Shown here piece by piece: positions 2,672-36,610 of a stretch of 36,610 nt of DNA. The notes below the pieces were generated by a model, which saw nothing but the letters and a program-made list of their open reading frames with translations, had not been told where the DNA came from and ran no database searches. Position 1 is the first letter of the stretch; each line of letters starts with the position of its first letter. A program made the position numbers and the translations under genes. Origin of the DNA: a virus; the IMG/VR virus record IMGVR_UViG_3300008213_000001; one strand, given 5' to 3'.

Positions 2672-3700
2672 TTAGGCCGTATCTCCATGTATTAAATTGA
2701 AATTAAGGCGCAAGTGTTTAGGTACCTCTGGGTCTGAATTCACCTCATCCATAATCAGCTCACACACCGGGATGATCTCATCCTTGGCATATTCACTGCC
2801 TACTTTTACAGGGTCGGGTGAAATTGAACCGCTTGAGGGAATAATGCCCCCTTTACCTGCTGGGAAGCGGTGGCCGACAAGAATGTCCTGCGCGGTAATA
2901 TTTTTGATGCGCTCAAACTCATCTTTGGTAGCGATATCACCAACCGGAATCAGCTGAATCCCTTTCTCTTTGCCGTTCGGAATGTTTACGAACATACTGC
3001 GGAAGTTACCCACGCCTTTAGAACTGGCGATCTTCTGCTTCAACATTTCTTCATCTTCTTCACTAAGGTTTGGGTCGGTGGCGTAGAAGATAAAGCCCAT
3101 GTGTGCGCCGTTCTTATAGTAGCGACGGCGGAACAAAGTCGCGTCTTTATTCAGCAAACTGCTCTGAATGCTGCCAAGATAATCCGCCAAACCGTAGATT
3201 TGTTGTTGTGGGTCGTACTGAGGCAAGAAAATAACATCTTCCTTGCGATATTCCCGCTGCTGGTTGTCGCGTTCCAGAATGACGAAATTGCCGTTTTTGC
3301 GTCTGCGAAGGTACATGCCAGGTAATGGATGCAAACGAACCACACGTTTGAAGCCATCGCGGATTTTAAGAAATGCAGCATCGCCAAAGGTGAAGTAATC
3401 ACGGCAAAAAGCTTGGACGTGTCGGCGGCGGATAGCGCCTCCATTTTGGAATCGTCCGGCTACGTAATTGGCCCGGGCTATCAACAGTGAGCCATGATAG
3501 GCGTTGGCGCGCGCGATATCCGCTAAGCCACTGCGAGAAATCGGTGGTTCCCAATAGTTGTCGGCATCGTTGTAAAACAAATCTGAATAGGTGGTCATCC
3601 AACTGTTTGAGTCGATGGCCTCTGGTGAGGAGTCGATGTGATAGACCGACTCTGGCGTGTGTTCTTCTTGTTTGACTAAAGTGTTCATTTGCTCGGTCAT
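2672..3700 (-). CDS. Portal protein (P2 gpQ-like, 342 aa)
   Basis: Size and position match P2 Q. ATGA overlap with the terminase stop (3697-3700). Transcribed divergently from the scaffold/capsid operon as in P2. Confidence 0.9.
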
Positions 3701-22198: not shown

Positions 22199-22217
22199 AC
22201 AGTATTAAAACCACGCC

Positions 22218-22247
22218 AAAGCGCCCATAACGGGCGCTTTTCTTTTT
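22218..22247 (+). terminator. Rho-independent terminator of the tail operon
   Basis: AAAGCGCCC-ATAAC-GGGCGCTTT 9-bp stem followed by TCTTTTT. Confidence 0.85.
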
Positions 22248-22896
22248 GTCTGAACATCGAACGCAATCCAAAACACCGAACGTCTGAGTAGCAACCGAAA
22301 CGCTGAGCCACGTAAACGACCCTTTCGGTGACGTAATCCGCACTCCTCCTCCCCACCTGCGCGCTTTTCGATCTGGTTTTTTCGCAATTCTCAAATGTCG
22401 AAATATGCCTACCCGTGTGGCACGCTCGGTATCAAGCGAAGCCTTAGCCATAGCGGGGTTCGAGAATCCCGCAGACCTCTAAAAATCGCTACTGGGGCCG
22501 TTTTATAGATTTCAAAAGTTGAAAAGATTTTCAGGAAATTGCAATTTTAATGATCTGGAAAGATCAGGTAGTAATTAGTAAGTGTTTGAAAATCATAGGG
22601 TGAGTGTGTTTTTCGTCATAAATGAAGACGATCAAAAGAAGAAAGGGGCGATCAATGGTGATGCTTACGAAGCCTTGTATAGATTGGCTTGAAGGCGAAT
22701 TGCCAAGATAAATAAGTTTTTCAATTTATGAGACTGTATAATTACTTTGAGATTTTGAAATGACTTTGAAGTTAACAGTAAGAAATTGCTGTTTTCGTGG
22801 GGAGTGCGTGAGAAGAGCCAAAGCCTGCTTTTTTGCCGGATTTGTCGGACAGCTTCTTAACTTCGAAGTCCAAACCAAGCAATTAGATTTAAATGT

Positions 22897-23122
22897 GTCG
22901 CCACTTCATCGCCACTTAATGTTTTTGTTTGATTTAACTAAATGATTTTAAAGGTTTAATTATTAAAGTGGATATAAAGCTTTATTATGTATCGCAGTCC
23001 TTAGAAATCCCTTCAACCATTGCTGCTCCTTGTTATATAAAGACTTGTTCAATCACATCAATCTGGTGATAATCTATAAATACCGACAAAAACTGACCTT
23101 TGCCGCCACTTTGTCGCCATTA
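22897..23122. other. Candidate attP region with two tandem pairs of a GTCGCCACTT-like motif (putative integrase arm sites)
   Basis: GTCGCCACTT 22897-22906, ATCGCCACTT 22908-22917, GCCGCCACTT 23102-23111, GTCGCCATTA 23113-22122 region (23113-23122). All are in the same orientation, with 11-bp spacing within each pair and about 205 bp between pairs, in an AT-rich non-coding region between the tail operon and the int side of the genome. Confidence 0.4.
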
Positions 23123-23252
23123 TTTCTTACCGTGCGTACTCTATTTTATTTCATGACATTATAAATTGTATTTGAAAAGGCTAAGTAATGTACAAGCGTT
23201 GGTCTCTGTTTGAAGAAGGAACAACTGGAAGGACATGAACTACTTGTTCTGC

Positions 23253-23279
23253 AAGAAAAAGAGCGGAACTAACCGCTCT
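23253..23279 (-). terminator. Rho-independent terminator downstream of the deaminase gene
   Basis: On the minus strand: AGAGCGG-TTAGTT-CCGCTCT followed by TTTTTCTT. Confidence 0.75.
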
Positions 23280-23287
23280 ATTAGAAA

Positions 23288-24952
23288 TTAATGCGCCATT
23301 AACGCATTTAGTTCGTCTTTATACGCTGCGATTGGTGTATATAGGTTGTGAAAGGCTCGTCCAATAGCTCCATTAAACAGAACCATTTCCGGTTGTTTGT
23401 GTTTTAAACCCGATGTCAGTATGTGATCAAAAGATATTCCAGGATATGGATCAATATAGAAAATCTTGGTCATACCTAGCTGATAAGCTTTTTTTGCACA
23501 TAATTCACAAGGACTCGCTGTCGTGAATAGAAAGCCACCCTCTACTCCACTCCCACCATCTTTTGATATCTGTAAGAAAGCATTTTCTTCGGCATGTAGT
23601 GATCTAGTATGAACTTGGTTTTTGTCTTGTTTGATTGCATTGTATTCTGATTTAAAACAATACGATAAGTTATAGCCTTTTTTCTTAATAGGCTTTAAAG
23701 CTTCAAATTTAGCTATCATATGCTCTTGAAACTCACTGTCAGTAAGTTCGAAAGGGCTATAAGCTTGTTCGTCGCGCTTCTTATTTAAGTCTTGAGTCGA
23801 ACGCAGGTTACATGGAACTTGACCAAAAGGAGCATCATTCCAACCAACAGATTTGATAGAAAAATTATTTTGTGTGACAACAGCACCTACTTGACGTGAT
23901 AGGCACCCGGAGTTTAATTTAGACGTATATGCTACTTGCATACATCGTTCTTCAGCGCTAGGAGTTATCAACCCGGGCTTTTGAGCTAGGGAAACTAATT
24001 TTATTATTTGGCTGGTGAGGAGTTGATGTGATGAATAGCTATCAGCCTTGGCATTACTATCCATATAAACGTCAGCTTTTTGGAGGCATCCTTGAATATC
24101 TTGATCGGTAAAGCTTTTTTCATCGTCAAAGTCTAATCTGGCATACTCGACTTTATCTATAGTGTCTATACTTTCGTCAGACAATCCTTTGGCTCGCAAG
24201 CGCTCCTTTCGAGTATCTTCGTTACAAGATATTGCTAACAAATAAAATGAAGCAAAACGCTCTTGAAAATAACTGGCCTCAAGTGGATTCCTAATAGCAT
24301 CAATAGCAATATATGTGTTTTGTTTCAAATCTTTACATTGTTGATGGATTTGCTTACAAGCTTTTTTAATTCGGTCTGCAATAGAAAAAAACTTTCCATC
24401 GACCATAGTAGAGTTGGACACATTTCCAGATCTACGGGCATTCTTCCCCATGAGTTGGTATAGCTTGATAAATATGGCTTCACCAAGTTCTTTACGTATT
24501 TTGGCTGTTGTTTCGTCTAAAAAGTCGACATAGAAATTTCGCTTATCTTGCTGTTTTATTCTTTCAGCTAGTTCCTTTTGGTAGGTGAGAAATAAACAGA
24601 TGTCTTTGTCTCGTATTGCTTCTTGATTTTTAAGAAAGCGCTCCAGCTGTTCAGGAGTGAGTGAATCTAATAGCATTAGCGTTAGAATTGAGCTAACACG
24701 CAGGTGTATAAAAGGTTGCCAATTTTTTTTATAGAATTTGTTTAGAATTTTTTCTTTTCGTTGCTTATTATTATCTGGAGTGTTGCCAGTGAAAAAACTA
24801 TGGCTTAAAGCACTTTTCTCTGTTGCTAATATTTTTGCTGCTGTTGTACTTCCACTTCCTGTTCTACCAGTCAGGCCTATAATGATAAAATCTTCGTTCT
24901 TACTGTAGAGTTTTTCCAATGCAGAGGATAAGTATTCGTTTTTATTACTCAT
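23288..24952 (-). CDS. P-loop nucleotide-kinase-like domain fused to a dCMP/dCTP (cytidine) deaminase domain: AvcD/DCD-type anti-phage deaminase (554 aa)
   Basis: Walker A GLTGRTGSGSTTAAKIL at the N-terminus. Zinc-dependent deaminase signature HAEENAF ... PCELCAKK at the C-terminus. Architecture and size match the dCTP-depleting defence deaminases. Confidence 0.85.
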   Translation of the reverse strand: MSNKNEYLSSALEKLYSKNEDFIIIGLTGRTGSGSTTAAKILATEKSALSHSFFTGNTPDNNKQRKEKILNKFYKKNWQPFIHLRVSSILTLMLLDSLTPEQLERFLKNQEAIRDKDICLFLTYQKELAERIKQQDKRNFYVDFLDETTAKIRKELGEAIFIKLYQLMGKNARRSGNVSNSTMVDGKFFSIADRIKKACKQIHQQCKDLKQNTYIAIDAIRNPLEASYFQERFASFYLLAISCNEDTRKERLRAKGLSDESIDTIDKVEYARLDFDDEKSFTDQDIQGCLQKADVYMDSNAKADSYSSHQLLTSQIIKLVSLAQKPGLITPSAEERCMQVAYTSKLNSGCLSRQVGAVVTQNNFSIKSVGWNDAPFGQVPCNLRSTQDLNKKRDEQAYSPFELTDSEFQEHMIAKFEALKPIKKKGYNLSYCFKSEYNAIKQDKNQVHTRSLHAEENAFLQISKDGGSGVEGGFLFTTASPCELCAKKAYQLGMTKIFYIDPYPGISFDHILTSGLKHKQPEMVLFNGAIGRAFHNLYTPIAAYKDELNALMAH

Positions 24953-26156: not shown

Positions 26157-26308
26157 TTTCTGTGTGGTAGTTTTTGCAATGTTTAAGTTGAGAATGAACG
26201 AACAAGAATGAGTATGCTCTATGTCGCAAAGAGAATACTACGGTTTGACCGATACACAAATTGCTGGTAAGTCGGGATTGGAACGGTAGTTTATGTGTTG
26301 AGGTGAGT

Positions 26309-27154
26309 ATGCTTGTTTGTACCTATAGGGAAGATGGTTCGGATTGTACAACGGAAATGTATGAAGACGATCCGGGTAAATTTCGAGGATTAATTGACTG
26401 CAAAGTTTGTGGAGAAAAAGCTTGGTTTGTTAAGGGATATAAGACAGCAAAAATCGACCGTATGGCATGTTTTGGTGCTCGCCATAAACCTGATTGCGAC
26501 GCTTCGACGGTATTGATGAAACCTGATGGGGAAGATGAATCAGTGGGAGAAGGAGATTTATCTTCTGACATTCGTGTTGATCTAGATAAAGCCAATAACA
26601 ACTCATTGTATGTATCTCAAGATAACGGCAAGCACGGTGAAGAGGAATCAACACGAGTAACGGCGAGGCCGGCATCTGGAGTTGGTTCTGGCTCAGGTTT
26701 CCCACTCAATAAATCTTTGAGGGCGCTGTTAACAAATCTATGTCGTAATCCAAATTATGCGGATAAGGGACAGACGATTAACATTGTGACGGACGGTGGA
26801 AGAGAGATCATTAAAGGCCAACTTGCAGACTTCTTAGTTCCCATATCAGAAGCAAGTGACAAGCATACAGGAAAAGAATACATATTCTGGGGTCCAATAA
26901 ACAACTTAAACGTTGATAATAATGGAGTTCTTTGGCTGAACTATGGTGACTATAGGACTGAACCTAGCATAAGTCTTAGACCAGAGTTAAAAGACCAGCT
27001 CCTTAGAAACTTTAAGATTAAAGATGTTAGTGAGCTCGATGGCTCAGATGTGATAGTTGTTGGCCATGTTGGCATCTCTCCCAATAACAAAGCCATCATC
27101 TCTACAGGTTTTACGAAGTATTTGTCATTCCGTAAGATGAATATTATGCAATAA
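26309..27154 (+). CDS. Hypothetical protein with an N-terminal Cys/His cluster (281 aa from ATG 26309)
   Basis: GAGGTGAGT precedes ATG 26309. Cys/His cluster: CxxC (CKVC), 19 residues, then C-x4-H-x3-C (CFGARHKPDC), giving a zinc-ribbon-like N-terminus. Gly/Ser linker and an unrecognised C-terminal domain. AT-rich. Confidence 0.6.
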   Translation: MLVCTYREDGSDCTTEMYEDDPGKFRGLIDCKVCGEKAWFVKGYKTAKIDRMACFGARHKPDCDASTVLMKPDGEDESVGEGDLSSDIRVDLDKANNNSLYVSQDNGKHGEEESTRVTARPASGVGSGSGFPLNKSLRALLTNLCRNPNYADKGQTINIVTDGGREIIKGQLADFLVPISEASDKHTGKEYIFWGPINNLNVDNNGVLWLNYGDYRTEPSISLRPELKDQLLRNFKIKDVSELDGSDVIVVGHVGISPNNKAIISTGFTKYLSFRKMNIMQ

Positions 27155-27180
27155 AAAACCCTCTAAGAAGAGGGTTTACT
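27153..27180. terminator. Bidirectional rho-independent terminator between convergent genes
   Basis: AAACCCTCT-AAGA-AGAGGGTTT 9-bp stem (27156-27177), flanked by an A-run on the left (a U-tract for the minus strand) and TTTACTT on the right. Confidence 0.8.
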
Positions 27181-27214: not shown

Positions 27215-27970
27215 TCAGTCTTGTATATGAACTTCTTCTTGGCATTTGTAAGCCAAATAGTCCTCAGACATCTGAGGTAAGAATCCTTTCGGCCAAGTTG
27301 TTACAAACTCGCACAGCAGCTTATACGGAGCAGGAGCGTCCATGTTAACTTTTGATACTGTTAGAACATAGTTTTTAAGGTTCGGATCTTTCATTAGAGT
27401 TCTAATGTCTGAGTTAAAGTACTTAGGGCAATAACCAACTTTAATTTGCTCTTCATCAGAAGTCGTGGCAAATACTGCATTACAGTCATGTTCATTGCAG
27501 TCTTCAAAGTGAAATCTCAGTTCATCTCCGCTATCTAACCGCGAGATTCTCTCAATGTTACTATCTGGTAAATACCTAATACCATTGATAAAAAACTTAA
27601 TTTTATAGTTTTTTGTATCCGTTAGTTGTGGTTGCGCGATGATTCGAAACTGATCTGTCTGTCGAGCTCCACCAGTAATTCCTAGTAGTTCCAACTCATC
27701 ATATGACTCGGTATCCATGCCTGACCACTCCAGAACTTTCTTAAACTCTGGTCGACTCTTAGGTAGAATTCTATTTCTAAAAAACGCAAACAACTCTCTT
27801 GAAGTGTAAATCTTCGAACGGTCTTGCATTCTAGGAAAGGGTACAAAACGTGGGTGATTTGACCCTAGAGTATAATTCAGGCGATACAGTTTTTCGGTTC
27901 TAGTCAGTTTAGCGACAGGGTGCCACATCCCGTCTTGAAGATCTTTCCAAACAACAAATACACTTTTCAT
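27215..27970 (-). CDS. HipS-like (HipA N-subdomain-like) domain fused to a HIRAN-like domain (251 aa)
   Basis: aa 1-110: VFVVWKDLQDGMWHPVAKL...YRLNY...ELFAFFRNRILPKSRPEFKKVLEWSGMD...GGARQTDQFRI resembles the HipA N-terminal/HipS region. aa 120-225: FINGIRYLPDS...LDSGDELRFHFEDCNEHDCNAVF...IKVGYCPKYFNSDIRTLM resembles HIRAN. The start lies 6 nt after the kinase stop. Confidence 0.65.
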   Translation of the reverse strand: MKSVFVVWKDLQDGMWHPVAKLTRTEKLYRLNYTLGSNHPRFVPFPRMQDRSKIYTSRELFAFFRNRILPKSRPEFKKVLEWSGMDTESYDELELLGITGGARQTDQFRIIAQPQLTDTKNYKIKFFINGIRYLPDSNIERISRLDSGDELRFHFEDCNEHDCNAVFATTSDEEQIKVGYCPKYFNSDIRTLMKDPNLKNYVLTVSKVNMDAPAPYKLLCEFVTTWPKGFLPQMSEDYLAYKCQEEVHIQD

Positions 27971-27976
27971 TATAAT

Positions 27977-28927
27977 TCAACTTTTTAGAGCTAAAGCTAG
28001 ACTTGGCTTTAGGTCGATAATTCTTTTTTTGTTACTCTCAATAATAGCAATACAAAATTGCTTTGCAGTTTCACTAATTATGGAGTGGGGTATTCGTGAT
28101 ACGATGTTATTCACTTGATCACATTCAAGTTTTTCTAATCGTTCAACCCACTCTATGGCTGCTTTGGGTGATAATTTAGCGAACTCAGTAAAAGCTTCAA
28201 TAGTTTTCAATCGCGTACCTTTCAGATAAAAATGAGACTTACTTTTTCTTACGTATTGCTCTACAGATTGGTTTGCTTGTTCTGGGTAAAGCCTTCTTTT
28301 TCTATTCTCATCAGATTCATTTCGCCCAAGGCTCGCTGCATGGTCAAAAGTCGGTGCAAGTGTCATTTTTCCTTCAGGGTTGACGGTTAAAGCCCAGTTT
28401 TCGTTGTGCCTATCTTGATTTGAAATGAGACAATCAAACATCAAATACCCGATAAATACATCTAGAGCTGATTTGATCGAAGTTGTATTCTCCCAAGTTC
28501 TAGGAGGCTTTACCACGACTTTTTCCATTACGAGGGCGACTCGAGAAACTTCTTGAGATTTTTGCCCGGTTTTCGGTTCCAGCTTTTGGCTTTGCTCTAC
28601 TCTTTCAAGTAAATGGTTGCCGAAGTACAGTTTATCCCCTTTTTCACTAAAATTGAGACTTCGCGTTCCCATTTCTCCATTATGTGATGCTAAATCATAT
28701 TGAGCATGAGGTATTCCAAGTGCTTCTGCCAACTCACAAGATATTTTTTCCGCCCAGTCTTCACCACACCTTATGACAGGAGCTCCGTTCTTATCTTCAG
28801 TATGGGTTGATTTGAATAGATATTGCTTCTTATCTGAAGGGTCTGTGTACCAGAATTTAGACTTTGTTCCCATATCTTCAAAGTCATCAAAGTTCTGATC
28901 ATGAACTTCGAAAATCGGATATTCCAA
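27977..28927 (-). CDS. HipA-family Ser/Thr kinase core without the N-terminal subdomain (HipT-like, 316 aa, TTG start)
   Basis: Catalytic loop DCLISNQDRHNENWAL (DRHNEN encoded by 28397-28414 on the minus strand) and APTFDH Mg-binding-like motif. AAGGAAG RBS lies 7 nt before TTG 28927. Confidence 0.75.
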   Translation of the reverse strand: MEYPIFEVHDQNFDDFEDMGTKSKFWYTDPSDKKQYLFKSTHTEDKNGAPVIRCGEDWAEKISCELAEALGIPHAQYDLASHNGEMGTRSLNFSEKGDKLYFGNHLLERVEQSQKLEPKTGQKSQEVSRVALVMEKVVVKPPRTWENTTSIKSALDVFIGYLMFDCLISNQDRHNENWALTVNPEGKMTLAPTFDHAASLGRNESDENRKRRLYPEQANQSVEQYVRKSKSHFYLKGTRLKTIEAFTEFAKLSPKAAIEWVERLEKLECDQVNNIVSRIPHSIISETAKQFCIAIIESNKKRIIDLKPSLALALKS

Positions 28928-29018
28928 AAGATAGCTTCCTTAAAATACGATTTATCATATGCTAAATAAGAATTACTAGCAGTTCTTTGTTAACTCACAT
29001 GTTAACTAAAGCTAACCT

Positions 29019-30182
29019 CTATTTTCCTCGTAGCCGTTCTCTAACAGTTTTTTTTTGGCCGTTTATAGACTTCGCAATTCCAACCATCTCTTTCATATCG
29101 CGTAAGAAGTCGGGTACACTTTGAGTATCTGCTTTACCATCGTGGAAAGAAAAGAAGGAGATTGCGAGATCGTTCTTTAGTCTATTTTTATCTTCTTCTG
29201 CTAAGCCTTCTAAGTAGCTCGGTAGAGAGACAATCTGTGTACCGCGCTGACGATAAATATTTTCTTTAGCCCGGTGGGCCGCAGACTCTTTTAGTAAATA
29301 AAGAGCGGGAGCTGTAAGGAGTAAAACGGACATTACGCGAAGTACAAATACCTCTGTACTAATCTCTTTCAACAGAGCAACGGTTTCAGGTGTTAGTTTT
29401 TCACCAAACCCCAAGTAGTCTTTAAACATAAAGCCGAGTAGAGCGATAGAAGTAAAAAGAAAAATTATGCCAATCGCTCTCAACCAGTTTGCGTATGTTT
29501 CTTCCTCTTTAGCTCTTTCTAAGTAGATCTCTCCTTCTTTTGCTATTCCTAGTTTACTGAAATATGCATCTATCATTTCTTGCTTTTTCGAAAAACGGTT
29601 AACCACCTCATCAATACGTTGTTGAATTGCTTCCATTTCTGCGGCGGCGTTGTCACTCAGTTGCTCTATAGCTTTGCGGCTTTCCGCACGAATATGATGC
29701 TTTGCCTTGTTTAACTCGGCTGAGTTTTTTTGCAGAATTTCATGGGCTCTATTTTGCAGATCTTCGAGAGTCTGAGCTGATATATGGGCTTCATCGCTCA
29801 GGTATTTGTCTTTTAGTTGGAATAGAGGAAGTGAAATTTGAAATAGACTTTCAAGTACACTTGAGTCATACAGAGGGAATTTTTTTGATAATTCCTTTAA
29901 AAGAGATAGTTCTTCTATATATGCTAGTAAGTATTTGACAGGGATGTTAATGTTATTACTTCTTGAATAGGTCAGAATACTTGTTAAGGAGGATTCAAAA
30001 TTATATAAGTTGCTTCGGAAGTCACTAAGTTCGTTATAAAAATCCAGATCTTCTTCACAAGAAATATCAAAGTTGGAAAGATCTTCAGACAATATTGTTC
30101 GAATCCAACCAAGGCAATTCTCAATCTTATTATTAAAGCTATCAATGTAATCTATGTAACTTGCTAAGTTTACTGTTTCCAC
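29019..30182 (-). CDS. Coiled-coil protein with two C-terminal-half TM helices (387 aa, GTG start)
   Basis: AGGAGG lies 7 nt before GTG 30182. Long helical N-terminal half. TM candidates are WLRAIGIIFLFTSIALLGFMF and VFVLRVMSVLLLTAPALYLL. No family recognised. Confidence 0.6.
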   Translation of the reverse strand: METVNLASYIDYIDSFNNKIENCLGWIRTILSEDLSNFDISCEEDLDFYNELSDFRSNLYNFESSLTSILTYSRSNNINIPVKYLLAYIEELSLLKELSKKFPLYDSSVLESLFQISLPLFQLKDKYLSDEAHISAQTLEDLQNRAHEILQKNSAELNKAKHHIRAESRKAIEQLSDNAAAEMEAIQQRIDEVVNRFSKKQEMIDAYFSKLGIAKEGEIYLERAKEEETYANWLRAIGIIFLFTSIALLGFMFKDYLGFGEKLTPETVALLKEISTEVFVLRVMSVLLLTAPALYLLKESAAHRAKENIYRQRGTQIVSLPSYLEGLAEEDKNRLKNDLAISFFSFHDGKADTQSVPDFLRDMKEMVGIAKSINGQKKTVRERLRGK

Positions 30183-30214: not shown

Positions 30215-30541
30215 TTAGTTTAAAATCACTTCTCTTTTAGCTAATGTATGTTCTCGTTTCTTTAGCCTCGTATTGTAGTCGTAGCAAAGTATGTCTAAGT
30301 GCCTTGTTGAACTTTGCCTAACCATTATCTTTTTTGATCCTGTTTCACTAAGAGGCTGGTGAATGTAGATAATGTGGTCTACGCGAAGAGTTCGAGGGGA
30401 GGAGGTGATGGAGCACCAACCTTGTACGTGTGTTGGTTCCTCTTTTGAGTTCGCGCTTAATTTGGCATTAACCATCTGTGGGCCAGGTAGCACTTGACGC
30501 TGACTCAAATAGGTGCAGATTAAGTCATTTGTAATATCCAC
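30215..30541 (-). CDS. Hypothetical protein (108 aa, GTG start) immediately downstream of cI
   Basis: AGGAA lies 6 nt before GTG 30541, which is 28 bp after the cI stop on the same strand. No motif recognised. Confidence 0.45.
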   Translation of the reverse strand: MDITNDLICTYLSQRQVLPGPQMVNAKLSANSKEEPTHVQGWCSITSSPRTLRVDHIIYIHQPLSETGSKKIMVRQSSTRHLDILCYDYNTRLKKREHTLAKREVILN

Positions 30542-30569: not shown

Positions 30570-31211
30570 TTATTCTTTTCTTAATGTCACCGCCACGCGG
30601 CCAATTACTTTTATATCTTTTTCTGAAACTTCAACGGTGCTGTCACCAAACACAACAGCCAGTTTTTTGCCTGGTAAGCGCTGGATATGGTTGATCGACA
30701 AAGTACCGTCGATATCTATTAAGTATTTGCCCGAAGCTGGGTTTGTAGAGCTTTTGTCAACGAGATATAAAGCTTCATTAGTTTCAACTTCAATCGTCGC
30801 GTCAGCTTTGAGGTTAAAGCTGTTAAACCTGCGGATAGCGTAAGGTAACTCACCAGTATCTAAAAGCTCCCCATTGGTCAGGCAATAGCTTTTGATCTGG
30901 ACTGAGTTGTGTTTAGGTGAAGTTGTAGCGCTTGCTTCTTCGGCAGTACATTTTGTCGCTGAGTGAGCCTTAAACCGGTCCTCTGGCTTTAACGCCAAAT
31001 CCACCATTGGGATTCCCAAAGCTAAATGAGCTCTTACCATGAGTTCATGGGAAGTTCGATTATGAGTATTCCAAGTGCTAAAAGTGCTTTTTGGTACGCC
31101 ATATACGAACGCCATTTCTTGAAAGTTCTTACATCCTGTCAAGTTCTTCAAATTTTCTGTGAAATCAGTGCCTTTCAAATAATCGAAAGGTTCTATTTTA
31201 CGAATGCTCAT
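30570..31211 (-). CDS. cI: Phage 186-type CI immunity repressor (213 aa)
   Basis: N-terminal HTH region NFQEMAFVYGVPKSTFSTWNTHNRTSHELMVRAHLALGIP and a C-terminal domain like the 186/K139 CI family. Divergent from the cox-like gene. Confidence 0.8.
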   Translation of the reverse strand: MSIRKIEPFDYLKGTDFTENLKNLTGCKNFQEMAFVYGVPKSTFSTWNTHNRTSHELMVRAHLALGIPMVDLALKPEDRFKAHSATKCTAEEASATTSPKHNSVQIKSYCLTNGELLDTGELPYAIRRFNSFNLKADATIEVETNEALYLVDKSSTNPASGKYLIDIDGTLSINHIQRLPGKKLAVVFGDSTVEVSEKDIKVIGRVAVTLRKE

Positions 31212-33344: not shown

Positions 33345-33580
33345 AAAATAAAAGGATCACTTCAGTTATTGTCGGTGATGATGTCATTCAAATTTTGGAA
33401 GGACGAACAAAGACATATGAAAAGTGTGCTATTGCATATTTTGCAGGGCCGGAAGGATGGGGCATAACCATGACAATTCGACTCGAAGAGGTCGAAGGTT
33501 TTCTGAAGTCTCCTGATACACAGAGACTATTTGTTAAGTTTTCGAAAGAAAAATTAGGGATAGAGTATGAACCAGTCTGA
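33341..33580 (+). CDS. Early hypothetical protein (79 aa from ATG 33341)
   Basis: GGAGG RBS. ATGA overlap with the previous stop. The ORF-track extension to 33239 is rejected. Confidence 0.5.
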   Translation: MKNKRITSVIVGDDVIQILEGRTKTYEKCAIAYFAGPEGWGITMTIRLEEVEGFLKSPDTQRLFVKFSKEKLGIEYEPV

Positions 33581-35654
33581 CCTTCTCTATATCGGCGGGG
33601 CAGTGATGCCCCTTGACCGAATCAAAAATAATGATGCCAGCTATAAAGCTGGTTTTTTAGGTTCCAAAATTTACTCAGACCAAGAACAAGCACTTCTAGA
33701 TAGTGGAATGGTCAAAAAAATAGCGATATATGACCGCGTTCCCAATCGAAAGTCTAAGCGCGAACGAGATCTTCAAGAGCGAACTGACTTCTATAAATCT
33801 GTAAATTACCTCTCGGAACACGACCGCGAAGCGGCGGCGAGAATCGCCGAAGAGTATAGGCTAGTCAAAGGGCGCAAAAGTCCGACAAAGAAATTTCGCC
33901 ACAGAAAAGACAAGCAAATTAAGCAATTGATGAGTCTGAGCAAGTCTCTACGCCCTAAAAGTATCATCAGCAATGCCGACGCCAACTTCAGCCATGATGC
34001 TTTGTATGAAACGAACGAGCGCTCCAAACCTGCCATTCTCAATCAGAATGGAAAACGAGGACAAGGCGAACCTAAAAAGATTCCTATTTCAATGCAGCTA
34101 ATGCACCGGTCTTGGAATGAAACTTATAAGTTTCAGGCGGTAACCGAAACGCCATCTAGTGCTGCGCCTTCGGAAAACAGTGGTGAGAGATTCTCGGAAA
34201 AGTTGACGTCCCGTTCTGTTTCTAAAATCTTTGAGGCAGGGGCTTACACTGCAGCTTGCCATGGTGGTTTCTCTACTTTTCTCACGCTGACTTTCACCAA
34301 GGCACAACGAATGGCCATATTCGGTGGAATGTTGGATGGAAGTGAGTGTGTCAGCATGGGGTCGCATCATCCAATAATCTATAAGCGCAACATGGTGACA
34401 GTACATCCTAAGCGTGGTGAAAAGAAAGTTGACCAACCAATCACGGATATTGGTGGAGAATACTGGCTGTTTCCAACCTTAGATAGTAAGCGTGTTAAAG
34501 CTATGAACCAGGGCAGTGTCATAGCCGGGCCGTATTGCGATCTTAAACAAAAGCCCAAGCAAGAGTTCTCGATGGAAAAAACCTTAGAGACAACGATAGG
34601 TAAAGAAGTCTCTCGTTTTCTTGATGGCGCAAAGAAAATGTATCAACGCGGCTGGGTTGCGGATCATACCATCCAAGTTGACAAAGATAGTGGACGAAAG
34701 TACTGCGACTTATCCCAGGAGAAGGTTGCTAAACATGCTCAACCCAGCGATGTTGGGCCGACTAACTTACCTGCTGATTTCCATTACATATGGGTAGCCG
34801 AGTGTCCAGCCAATGAAGATGGAGAGCCTAATCCACACGTTCATATTTTGCTACGTTGGACAGTACCAGAGCATCTCTTTAGTCCTTGGGCCAAGCGACT
34901 TGAAAAGATATGGGGGCATGGGTTTGCGAAATTAGAGCGAATCAAAAAGCCAAAAGCCGCCGGTTCTTACATTATCAAAGCAGTCGGTTATGCCGCTAAA
35001 GGTGAAAATGCTGACCAAGGGCTAATCAAGGGAAATCGATACAATATCGCGAAGTGCTCAAGAGCTCCTGCCTGGGAAACTCTTGCTTCGTTTGAAGCTG
35101 GCAATATGACCGCAATAATTAAGGAGTTAGGCTACAAACTTGAGCAATGGAAAAAGCCAATTAAGCGGCAAATCCGCAAGCTACGAAATGCCAAAGAGCA
35201 AACCATCAAGGCCAAAGCGATCGCCAAAAAGCAGCAGAAATCTGAGGAATATCAGAACAAGCTTTATCAGAGAATCATCCGTTTGGAAAAGCGGGCCGAA
35301 AAGCTGAGTCAGAACTTACATAGCAGGGGAGTGCACGTGAATACGAGCAATCGCTTCTGCATTACGTTTGAAGGAGAACTGGCTAAGGATAAAGTAGACA
35401 AGTTTATGGTTTGGGCTGCTGGTGCAAGAGGGTGGTCATTGAATTGTAGAGATCTGGACCTGAGCGATATAAAACAAGACGCGAGCCACTTCTATCAATC
35501 TGAATATCAGCGATTTAAAGAGAATCAGTCCTATTGGCAATCACTATTACATGAACCTGTACCACATATGGAAGTTGATGAAAGTGAGCTTTCTTATTGG
35601 TATAGCATTACGGCAGATTATCTCGAAGGGCGGCTTTTTCCAATATTGAGTTAG
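33567..35654 (+). CDS. Rolling-circle replication initiator (P2 gpA-like HUH endonuclease, 695 aa)
   Basis: HUH-type motif NPHVHILLRW and tyrosine motif GSYIIKAVGYAAKG. Size and position at the end of the early operon match P2 A. Confidence 0.75.
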   Translation: MNQSDLLYIGGAVMPLDRIKNNDASYKAGFLGSKIYSDQEQALLDSGMVKKIAIYDRVPNRKSKRERDLQERTDFYKSVNYLSEHDREAAARIAEEYRLVKGRKSPTKKFRHRKDKQIKQLMSLSKSLRPKSIISNADANFSHDALYETNERSKPAILNQNGKRGQGEPKKIPISMQLMHRSWNETYKFQAVTETPSSAAPSENSGERFSEKLTSRSVSKIFEAGAYTAACHGGFSTFLTLTFTKAQRMAIFGGMLDGSECVSMGSHHPIIYKRNMVTVHPKRGEKKVDQPITDIGGEYWLFPTLDSKRVKAMNQGSVIAGPYCDLKQKPKQEFSMEKTLETTIGKEVSRFLDGAKKMYQRGWVADHTIQVDKDSGRKYCDLSQEKVAKHAQPSDVGPTNLPADFHYIWVAECPANEDGEPNPHVHILLRWTVPEHLFSPWAKRLEKIWGHGFAKLERIKKPKAAGSYIIKAVGYAAKGENADQGLIKGNRYNIAKCSRAPAWETLASFEAGNMTAIIKELGYKLEQWKKPIKRQIRKLRNAKEQTIKAKAIAKKQQKSEEYQNKLYQRIIRLEKRAEKLSQNLHSRGVHVNTSNRFCITFEGELAKDKVDKFMVWAAGARGWSLNCRDLDLSDIKQDASHFYQSEYQRFKENQSYWQSLLHEPVPHMEVDESELSYWYSITADYLEGRLFPILS

Positions 35655-35838
35655 TCCGGTTTGTGTCGTCATAAGAACTTAAAGGTTAGAGTAGTGAACC
35701 GCTATTTCTTAAAGTTGATTTAAAGTGCTATTGCTTGCATAAAAATCTGAGCTGTAGGCCACATAAAGGCTATTGATTATTTGCTCGTCAGTTATGTGAA
35801 TGTTATCCAACGGCTTTGTTTGTTCGAGGGATACGAGT

Positions 35839-36570
35839 ATGAAGCATAATTTGAGTATAGTTGGACGAAAAACGAATCGTCCTAGTAATCCAACTGCAGC
35901 TGAGTTGGCCTTAGATCGTTTTGATGCGTTAGTCGACGATTTCTATAGCAAGTATCGTGTTGCCCCACCTGCGGGTGAAACTGAACAGCAAAGAGCAAAA
36001 CGATTGCAGTTTGAAGCACAAGACTTGAGGTTTTTGAAAAAAATGAGGATTGAACTCATTGCTCATGCTCGAGTTGAAGATATGCAAGCTAAGTTGCAAT
36101 CGTACTCTGCAGAAAACTTAAAAAAAAATGCGAAAGAGTTGTTCGTTGAAAAGCATCATCCGACGACGAAACTAGCTAATAACCTAACCGCTGCAGGAGA
36201 GCCTAAACCAACTAAAAACCATGAGCCTCACCATATCATTCCTGGCTCGGGAAGGTTTAGAAAAGCAGAAATGAGAGCCGCAAGATTAAATTTGCACATG
36301 CATAAAATTGGCATAAATGCGCCCGTAAATGGTGTTTGGTTAACAAATTATGCGAAGCATACGGATTTTAACTGGGAAGCACCTAAGTCTCCGGCTCACC
36401 GTTCGATCCATACATTTAATTATGAAACTTGGATTAGTTCCAAATTTTCGAAGGGTATTCCGAGTAAGCAGCACTTTGAGGCTAACTTACTTCGGGTCAA
36501 AATGGAGTTAAAGAGTGGCACCTACCCTAAAGAGGTCTTGGAAGCTAAGAATGAAGTATGGAAAGGATGA
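35839..36570 (+). CDS. Stand-alone HNH/EndoVII-superfamily AHH-type nuclease toxin (243 aa from ATG 35839)
   Basis: HEPHHIIPGSGRF...LHMHKIGINAPVNGVWL...PAHRSIHTFNY matches the xHH ... N..NG..L ... H...H pattern of the AHH nuclease family (PHH encoded at 36226-36234). GAGGGA lies 7 nt before ATG 35839. Confidence 0.7.
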   Translation: MKHNLSIVGRKTNRPSNPTAAELALDRFDALVDDFYSKYRVAPPAGETEQQRAKRLQFEAQDLRFLKKMRIELIAHARVEDMQAKLQSYSAENLKKNAKELFVEKHHPTTKLANNLTAAGEPKPTKNHEPHHIIPGSGRFRKAEMRAARLNLHMHKIGINAPVNGVWLTNYAKHTDFNWEAPKSPAHRSIHTFNYETWISSKFSKGIPSKQHFEANLLRVKMELKSGTYPKEVLEAKNEVWKG

Positions 36571-36610
36571 TGACGGTTTATAAAATTACAGATGATTTAA
36601 CTAAGTTTCA
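36488..36610. repeat. Terminal direct repeat, right copy (identical to 1-123)
   Basis: See the left copy. It contains a duplicate of the first 53 nt of the immunity-like gene (ATG at 36558). Confidence 0.95.

Follow-up and report, generated by a model that had tools for sequence, protein, structure and literature searches.

The virus record IMGVR_UViG_3300008213_000001 of the IMG/VR database, a stretch of 36,610 nucleotides that is referred to here as the window, carries on its minus strand two adjacent genes, hipI (27977-28927) and hipN (27215-27970). The first encodes a 316-residue core of a HipA-family Ser/Thr kinase, and the second encodes a 251-residue, two-domain partner that is a putative antitoxin or sensor. 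Sequence matches identify the pair as the hipIN module, which is catalogued in PADLOC as PDC-M03. The original prediction, made from the letters of the window and a list of its open reading frames (ORFs), described the pair as a split HipA-family kinase with a HipS-like/HIRAN partner carried as prophage cargo, and suggested that it might be a DNA-end-sensing toxin or abortive-infection module. Both ORFs are found at these coordinates on the minus strand, and every peptide motif quoted in that prediction is present.

The HipI kinase and its partner HipN

The hipI gene begins with a TTG codon, and the Shine-Dalgarno sequence AAGGAAG (28935-28941, minus strand) can be read 7 nucleotides upstream of it. 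In the start region, residues 3-18 are kept in homologues, and a 99%-identical V. alginolyticus protein at NCBI is also 316 residues long. HipI is matched by the Pfam families HipA_C (E=3.5e-10, residues 20-222), with 40.3 bits against a cut-off of 30.5, and HipA_2 (2.6e-6). It is matched over residues 2-307 by PDC-M03A (2e-117) and by no other PADLOC model. By sequence, the nearest protein of solved structure is H. pylori CtkA (3akj, profile E 1.4e-14), and similarity to the HipT of Legionella is marginal (E ~0.1). As had been predicted, the N-subdomain 1 of HipA is missing, and the Gly-rich loop lies near the N-terminus.

Conservation in the kinase was assessed with 30 homologues of 40-82% identity. 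The Gly-rich (ATP) loop, as marked by conservation in this alignment, spans residues 17-26 (E-D-MGTKSKFW, with MGTKSKFW at 19-26; 28850-28879, minus strand), in which G20, K22, K24 and W26 never vary and T21 is almost invariant. HipI proteins are described as carrying Ser/Thr close to the Gly-rich loop in Gerdes 2021 (PMC8262856), and T21 and S23 are possible candidates for autophosphorylation sites in the window protein. HipI contains both the catalytic-loop sequence DCLISNQDRHNENWAL and APTFDH. The catalytic loop SNQDRHNEN (169-177) and the Mg-binding motif APTFDH (191-196) are encoded at 28340-28423 on the minus strand, and were assigned by invariance and by hhalign. Residues S169, N170, Q171, D172, R173, H174, N177, D195 and H196 are invariant, and alignment of HipI 159-214 with residues 296-357 of E. 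coli HipA places D172 on D309 and D195 on D332. By its sequence, then, HipI is the core of a HipA-family kinase, lacking N-subdomain 1 but with every catalytic motif intact.

HipN starts with ATG and is matched over residues 1-240 by PDC-M03B (2.6e-85). It contains ELFAFFRNRILPKSRPEF, INGIRYLPDS, DELRFHFEDCNEHDCNAVF and KVGYCPKYF. An AlphaFold2 (AF2) model of the full-length protein has a predicted local distance difference test score (pLDDT) of 89.4 and a predicted template modelling score (pTM) of 0.82, and a model of residues 1-116 (27623-27970, minus strand) has a pLDDT of 93.9. When this N-terminal domain was compared by Foldseek with the PDB, the best match was the HipS of Legionella (7vkb_B, E 7.4e-4, template modelling (TM) score 0.70/0.78) and the second was the HipS of the HipBST system of E. 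coli O127 (7ab3_E, TM 0.69/0.78, where 0.78 is target-normalised). Many HipA N-subdomain entries rank below HipS (3fbr_A, TMq 0.69), and hhalign places the domain on HipA residues 12-67. Because HipS entries are the two best matches, the HipS-like identity that had been proposed for this region is confirmed by fold, and the modelled N-domain of HipN is a HipS fold. The comparison of folds was needed to make this link, given that profile and single-sequence searches of PDB sequences with HipN returned only HIRAN entries, and neither HipS nor HipA. Among the profile checks, HipA_C and HIRAN score above their cut-offs, but Couple_hipA is sub-threshold on the window HipN alone (E=0.045, 14.7 bits, cut-off 22.5), whereas it is matched by 10 of the 33 HipN family members, at best with 2.2e-8.

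The C-terminal half of HipN, residues ~121-225 (27296-27610, minus strand), is a HIRAN domain with the motifs GIRY, NEHDCNA and VGYCPK, assigned by Pfam and Foldseek. Pfam HIRAN is matched by the window protein (E=1.8e-8, 34.5 bits, cut-off 24.7) and by all 33 family members, which bears out the HIRAN-like C-terminus of the original prediction. HIRAN entries dominate the Foldseek results for full-length HipN, with 3k2y (lp_0118 of L. plantarum) and the HIRAN domain of HLTF (4xzg/4s0n) matched at probability 1.0. Searching the BFVD viral library by Foldseek yielded only stand-alone or helicase-fused HIRAN domains, and no two-domain relatives of HipN. The fold is shared with HLTF and lp_0118 (3K2Y), and the NxxDxNA and VG(Y/H) motifs are kept. 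The difference is that the HIRAN domain of HLTF is part of a helicase/ubiquitin ligase, whereas in HipN it is joined to a kinase regulator.

HIRAN domains bind DNA ends rather than operator sequences, and in HLTF the pocket for the 3' end is formed by Y72, Y93, D94, H110 and K113. The HIRAN motifs of HipN align to NPYDKNA and VGH of HLTF, and we take D162 to be the counterpart of D94, the Asp that contacts the 3'-OH of the DNA, and Y180 to be the counterpart of H110. H161 lies at the position of Y93 and K183 at that of K113, and GIRY resembles GLRYY. Within the HIRAN half, N159, D162, A165, G179, Y180 and P182 are invariant. The motifs of the predicted DNA-end-binding pocket are conserved in HipN. 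Where HLTF has F142, a residue in contact with duplex DNA, HipN apparently has Pro213, as judged by comparison of motifs by eye. A change at this position is treated as a hint of binding to single-stranded DNA ends in Gerdes 2021 (PMC8262856).

The two genes are separated by the 6 nucleotides ATTATA (27971-27976, minus strand; TGA-ATTATA-ATG), a putative site of translational coupling. They are in the same frame, a point absent from the original prediction, such that the TGA is followed by the codons ATT and ATA and then by the ATG of hipN (27968-27979, minus strand). No Shine-Dalgarno-like AGGA, GGAG or GAGG was found upstream of this ATG, and hipI and hipN are probably translationally coupled, as had been supposed from the lack of a ribosome-binding site for hipN. 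In relatives, 45 of the 58 distinct junctions overlap by 4-29 nucleotides, mostly by 4 or 8, and the others are gaps of at most 32 nucleotides in all but one case. Because most junctions overlap and most others nearly abut, translational coupling is a trait of the family. The in-frame gap of 6 nucleotides is not conserved in the relatives. Programmed readthrough or fusion was considered as a family feature and rejected, given that most relatives have overlaps of 4 or 8 nucleotides that put the two genes in different frames.

Upstream of hipIN on the same strand lie the genes for the cI repressor (30570-31211; Pfam Phage_CI_repr and Phage_CI_C), orf108 (30215-30541) and orf387 (29019-30182). 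Between orf387 and hipI, a simple scan of the minus strand revealed neither a promoter-like nor a terminator-like site, and cI, orf108, orf387 and hipIN probably share one lysogenic transcript by read-through from cI. An intrinsic-terminator-like hairpin, AAACCCTCT-TCTT-AGAGGGTTT followed by TTTATT (27156-27177, minus strand), lies 38 nucleotides past the hipN stop codon and is common to the convergent gene orf297. The window copy is compact, at ~1.8 kb from ribosome-binding site to terminator.

Recurrence of hipIN in phage accessory-gene slots

A hipI gene is followed immediately and on the same strand by a gene for HipN at all 77 of the 77 loci examined. At two of the loci (L009, 2163-3140; L076, 7911-8898) the kinase ORF is broken into two pieces and HipN is intact, which is the decay expected were the kinase the harmful partner. 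The family defined by the HipN profile comprises 373 clusters (50% identity) at E <=1e-30 and 1137 at <=1e-10, and in PHROGs the families of HipI and HipN are both labelled 'unknown function'. A scan of genome collections gave 13 loci from a narrow search pattern, from which no taxon-wide statistics are drawn. No near-identical copy of the enterobacterial-type pair was found in the E. coli genomes searched, and carriage on plasmids is very rare (8 of 72,556 records).

Among 74 viral loci from IMG/VR, 39 have a P2-type portal gene within 130 bp of hipIN, and in these the pair lies 1-4 kb downstream of gpA where the contig is long enough. The gpA-gpQ locus of P2 has been defined as an anti-phage hotspot (Rousset et al. 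2022). At 10 further viral loci an integrase gene lies within 4 kb. A Vinavirales prophage of 14.6 kb in V. cyclitrophicus and the C. difficile siphophage phiCDKH02 have the pair beside the integrase gene; counting these, int-adjacent copies are seen in three phage types besides those with the gpA-gpQ slot. Unrelated temperate phages thus carry hipIN repeatedly in slots for accessory genes, and the occurrence of the same pair both in the P2 gpA-gpQ hotspot and in int-proximal slots, across several unrelated phage lineages, is a comparative result that is useful alone.

The window is itself a 186/P2-like temperate myophage of Vibrio. An exact direct terminal repeat of 123 bp (1-123 = 36488-36610) indicates a complete phage genome of ~36.5 kb that was assembled as a circle. 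Its structural genes are ~90% identical to those of vB_ValM-yong1, over a matching 63% of the query. A related prophage on a V. alginolyticus chromosome (L003) has ~89% DNA identity across the hipIN region, with the gene order cI, small ORF, orf387, hipI, hipN, opposite-strand ORF, int and host genes. In related Vibrio phages the int-cI interval holds other genes as cargo, so that it is a variable cargo locus. The window copy is well placed as a test case, with a complete temperate phage, a related prophage in a sequenced V. alginolyticus strain, and a natural comparison set of related phages that have other cargo at the same locus.

The setting of the pair also agrees with the original prediction, which had placed it on the cI strand, in an AT-rich region and near a known defence gene. 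The GC content is 0.387 in hipI and 0.392 in hipN, compared with 0.479 in the structural genes, and the int-proximal end of the prophage as a whole is AT-rich (0.37-0.39 vs 0.48). The known defence gene encodes an anti-phage dCTP deaminase (23288-24952, minus strand; NCBIfam NF041025 7e-113, PADLOC dCTPase 2e-130) and lies 2.3 kb from hipIN. The attP site is probably near 22974, since 22974-23112 matches the phage-host junction side of the V. alginolyticus prophage. The deaminase gene has no counterpart in that prophage and is therefore an insertion (indel) between the attP-like region (~22974-23112) and int. The comparison thus places hipIN and the deaminase gene both at the int-proximal, AT-rich end of the prophage.

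Related systems and proposed role

The hipIN module was named by Gerdes, Baerentsen and Brodersen (2021; PMC8262856), and is described in that paper as Hip clade XI, comprising the HipI kinase and HipN with its HipS-like and HIRAN domains. The window pair has the features given there, namely a short kinase that has four core motifs but lacks N-subdomain 1, a downstream gene for a HipS-like plus HIRAN protein, and no HipB. There is no structural difference; the window copy lies in a 186/P2-like Vibrio phage, downstream of cI. According to a proposal in the same paper, HipN and HipL recognize, through their HIRAN domains, DNA ends of invading phages or replication intermediates, and this recognition activates the kinase and leads to abortive infection. 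The original prediction credited the paper with no more than the type of operon; given this proposal and the cataloguing of the pair as PDC-M03, its claim to novelty is overstated. That no kinase operon with a HipS-HIRAN partner has been characterized does hold for the literature searched, in which no functional study of hipIN or PDC-M03 was found. The prophage hotspots are not mentioned for hipIN in the available part of Gerdes 2021; new here is the recurrence in these hotspots, whereas the functional idea itself has been published as a hypothesis, for a candidate system that is already catalogued.

PDC-M03 is one of 145 untested candidates that were collected by guilt-by-embedding (Payne et al. 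2024), and its genes were picked out because they lie within BREX, DISARM or type I restriction-modification systems. Both window proteins match PDC-M03A/B over their full length and their genes are adjacent (6 nucleotides), the difference being that the pair resides in a prophage rather than in such loci. A single-chain form, HipL, in which kinase, HipS-like and HIRAN domains are joined, is also described in Gerdes 2021 (PMC8262856). It has the same three domains in the order in which hipI and hipN are read, on one polypeptide as opposed to two genes, and only the TGA and two codons lie between the window ORFs. Readthrough of the hipI stop codon would yield a HipL-like single chain.

The HipA fold is also split in the HipBST systems (E. 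coli O127, 7AB3; Legionella, 7VKB), where HipT resembles HipI and HipS resembles HipN 1-116. In these systems HipS inhibits HipT, and HipT is active without HipS. HipBST differs in having three genes, including one for the helix-turn-helix (HTH) protein HipB, with hipS upstream of hipT, whereas in the window the kinase comes first, there is no HTH or HipB gene and the HipS-like domain is joined to HIRAN. Membership in HipBST was rejected on these grounds. In E. coli K-12 HipBA, the catalytic-loop and Mg-binding Asp residues of the kinase align with those of HipI, and the target, an aminoacyl-tRNA synthetase, serves as a precedent; both HipA and HipT block aminoacyl-tRNA synthetases. HipA differs in its 440 residues with an N-subdomain of its own, its partner HipB is an HTH repressor-antitoxin, and the known role is in persistence, not phage defence.

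Recently, the two-gene system HipAD (DS-6, PDC-M66), in which a HipA-like kinase is paired with a DUF3037/DUF1829 protein, has been reported as anti-phage (Nakamura et al. 2025, PMC12548924; Brenes & Laub 2025, via PMC13092281). Defence is lost when the kinase is deleted or carries a catalytic mutation, and toxicity results from deletion of the partner (PMC12548924; PMC13092281). Its source is E. coli prophages, according to the title of Brenes & Laub as cited in PMC13092281. HipAD shares with hipIN the arrangement of a HipA-family kinase and a non-HipB partner in two genes, but the partner, a predicted DNA binder, is unrelated to HipS-HIRAN. Because HipAD defends against phage, HipA-type kinases are established as anti-phage effectors.

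We favour, with some reserve, the reading of hipIN as prophage cargo in the int-cI interval that functions as a HIRAN-triggered abortive-infection kinase module. The annotation that forms part of this reading is nearly certain. An anti-phage role is plausible, favoured by the prophage hotspots, the listing as a PADLOC candidate and the sibling system of a kinase with a DUF3037 protein, and on this analysis the chance that hipIN has a role in defence appears somewhat better than even. That the trigger is specifically a DNA 3' end can be proposed only tentatively. Equally doubtful, if possible, is the full scheme in which free 3'-OH ends or short 3'-OH fragments would bind HipN and allosterically unlock a kinase that stops translation.

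Beyond the domains, their adjacency, the coupling and the hotspots, this mechanism is drawn by analogy with HipBST and HLTF. In the lysogen, hipIN would be read through from the cI transcript, and translational coupling would supply HipI and HipN in a fixed ratio. The HipS-like domain would dock on HipI at the position of the HipA N-subdomain and hold the kinase off, as HipS does on HipT. A superinfecting phage would expose free DNA 3' ends that are bound by HIRAN, such that HipN is switched or titrated away and HipI is freed. The kinase might then phosphorylate an essential translation factor, for which the aminoacyl-tRNA synthetases are the precedent; translation would halt and the infection abort, and the lysogen population, and hence the prophage, would be protected. 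Because HipL fusions exist, control would be allosteric rather than exerted via degradation of an antitoxin. In Actinobacteria, about one third of the genes for deoxydinucleotide-specific DEDD nucleases adjoin a cluster of a HIRAN gene and a HipA gene (PMC11706625), a hint that hipIN-like systems may be connected with short products of DNA degradation. The same neighbourhood also hints at a possible ligand, a product of DNA breakdown whose signal the nuclease would clear.

Several points weigh against this scheme. Simple release of an antitoxin cannot be general, because in HipL the domains are fused. Replication of the 186/P2 type is started by a gpA nick, which leaves a free 3'-OH, so that a plain 3'-end sensor risks firing when its own prophage is induced. 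PADLOC candidates that have been assayed are often inactive: PDC-M63 and PDC-S04 were inactive, and 4 of 8 were active in another set. Lastly, many relatives of hipIN lie in ordinary chromosomal islets without phage or defence neighbours, as in Aeromonas, by glyQS, and in Pseudomonas.

As the main rival reading, HipN could instead be a targeting or activating subunit, one that completes the HipA fold to give a HipI-HipN holoenzyme and uses HIRAN to bring the kinase to DNA 3' ends. Targets bound to DNA at replication forks or phage genome ends would then be phosphorylated, and a role in defence would still be possible. The N-subdomain is an integral part of active HipA, and the N-domain of HipN matches HipA entries as well, as noted above for 3fbr_A (TMq 0.69). 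The single chain of HipL, as described in Gerdes 2021, indicates that the kinase, HipS-like and HIRAN domains need not separate; an obligate 1:1 complex is implied by the coupling and overlap of the genes, and the pTM of 0.82 suggests that the two domains of HipN may be held in a fixed geometry. The best structural matches of the N-domain, however, are HipS (7vkb_B, 7ab3_E) and not HipA, and HipS is an inhibitor of a kinase that is active on its own. The two loci that lost the kinase and retained HipN also show the usual decay of a harmful kinase, and we consider a targeting subunit unlikely.

A classical toxin-antitoxin (TA) module for addiction or maintenance, in which a labile HipN would stabilize the prophage or permit a persistence-like dormancy and HIRAN would be autoregulatory or non-sensing, is judged quite unlikely. 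The architecture is TA-like, the family has been described as TA modules, hipIN resides on mobile elements, and a paper title credits hipBA with stabilizing a plasmid of Klebsiella. Yet no promoter of its own to autoregulate was detected for the window pair, and HIRAN binds DNA ends and not operators. The rarity of plasmid carriage speaks against maintenance too, fast-turnover hotspots are the opposite of a fixed maintenance function, and the single-chain HipL cannot act by differential stability. Very unlikely, in our estimate, is a non-defence cargo of benefit to the phage by lysogenic conversion, where the kinase would alter host translation or stress tolerance for the lysogen or the induced phage. 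Such a role would suit the location of hipIN on the lysogenic strand, the chromosomal islets without defence neighbours, and the kinship of HipI to CtkA, which is a secreted effector and not a TA toxin. It would, however, leave a DNA-end-binding domain and a HipS-like inhibitor fold without a job, the pair sits in defence hotspots, and the sibling HipAD is a defence system.

If the HIRAN-triggered abortive-infection reading is true, recognition of DNA ends by HIRAN, coupled to a kinase effector, would be a new sensing principle in bacterial immunity, and no immune sensor of bacteria before HipN would have been based on a HIRAN domain. The fold has otherwise been studied in HLTF, a fork-remodelling protein of eukaryotes.

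Neighbouring genes and a second cargo locus

The product of orf387 has weak coiled-coil-type Pfam matches and belongs to phrog_29215 (function unassigned). Its relative in Vibrio phage PQ189370, which has no hipIN, lies directly after cI, and orf387 is therefore placed outside the hipIN module; it may have a function of its own in exclusion or lysogeny. A three-gene system that includes orf387 or orf108, the latter directly downstream of cI, was rejected, given that a relative of orf387 is found in a Vibrio prophage without hipIN and that hipIN is found elsewhere without orf387. On the opposite strand, orf297 (26261-27154, plus strand) is convergent on hipN, has a weak zinc-ribbon match and is kept in the V. 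alginolyticus prophage. Beyond the deaminase gene, the 1.1-kb stretch at 22199-23287 holds no ORF of more than 86 residues, no tRNA and no Rfam match.

At some loci of relatives the pair has additional neighbours, which may be accessory components. All four of the four Aeromonas caviae loci (L078-L081, 7125-7631) have a gene for a 168-residue, AAA_33/KTI12-like P-loop protein ~370 bp upstream of hipI. In a Pseudomonas locus (L082, 9893-11305) a gene of unassigned function that encodes ~470 residues lies just downstream of hipN, and in a viral locus (L012, 10014-11438) an ORF of similar size occupies the same position.

The window has a second AT-rich cargo locus (GC 0.355), which extends across the circular junction between a replication gene (33567-35654) and the portal gene (2672-3700), a position that corresponds to the P2 gpA-gpQ hotspot. 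Its ORFs lie at 35800-36570 and 71-658 on the plus strand and at 769-1206 and 1281-1745 on the minus strand. They include a gene for an AHH-family HNH nuclease (Pfam 4.8e-10), which is followed by an ORF of 195 residues that is a possible immunity protein.

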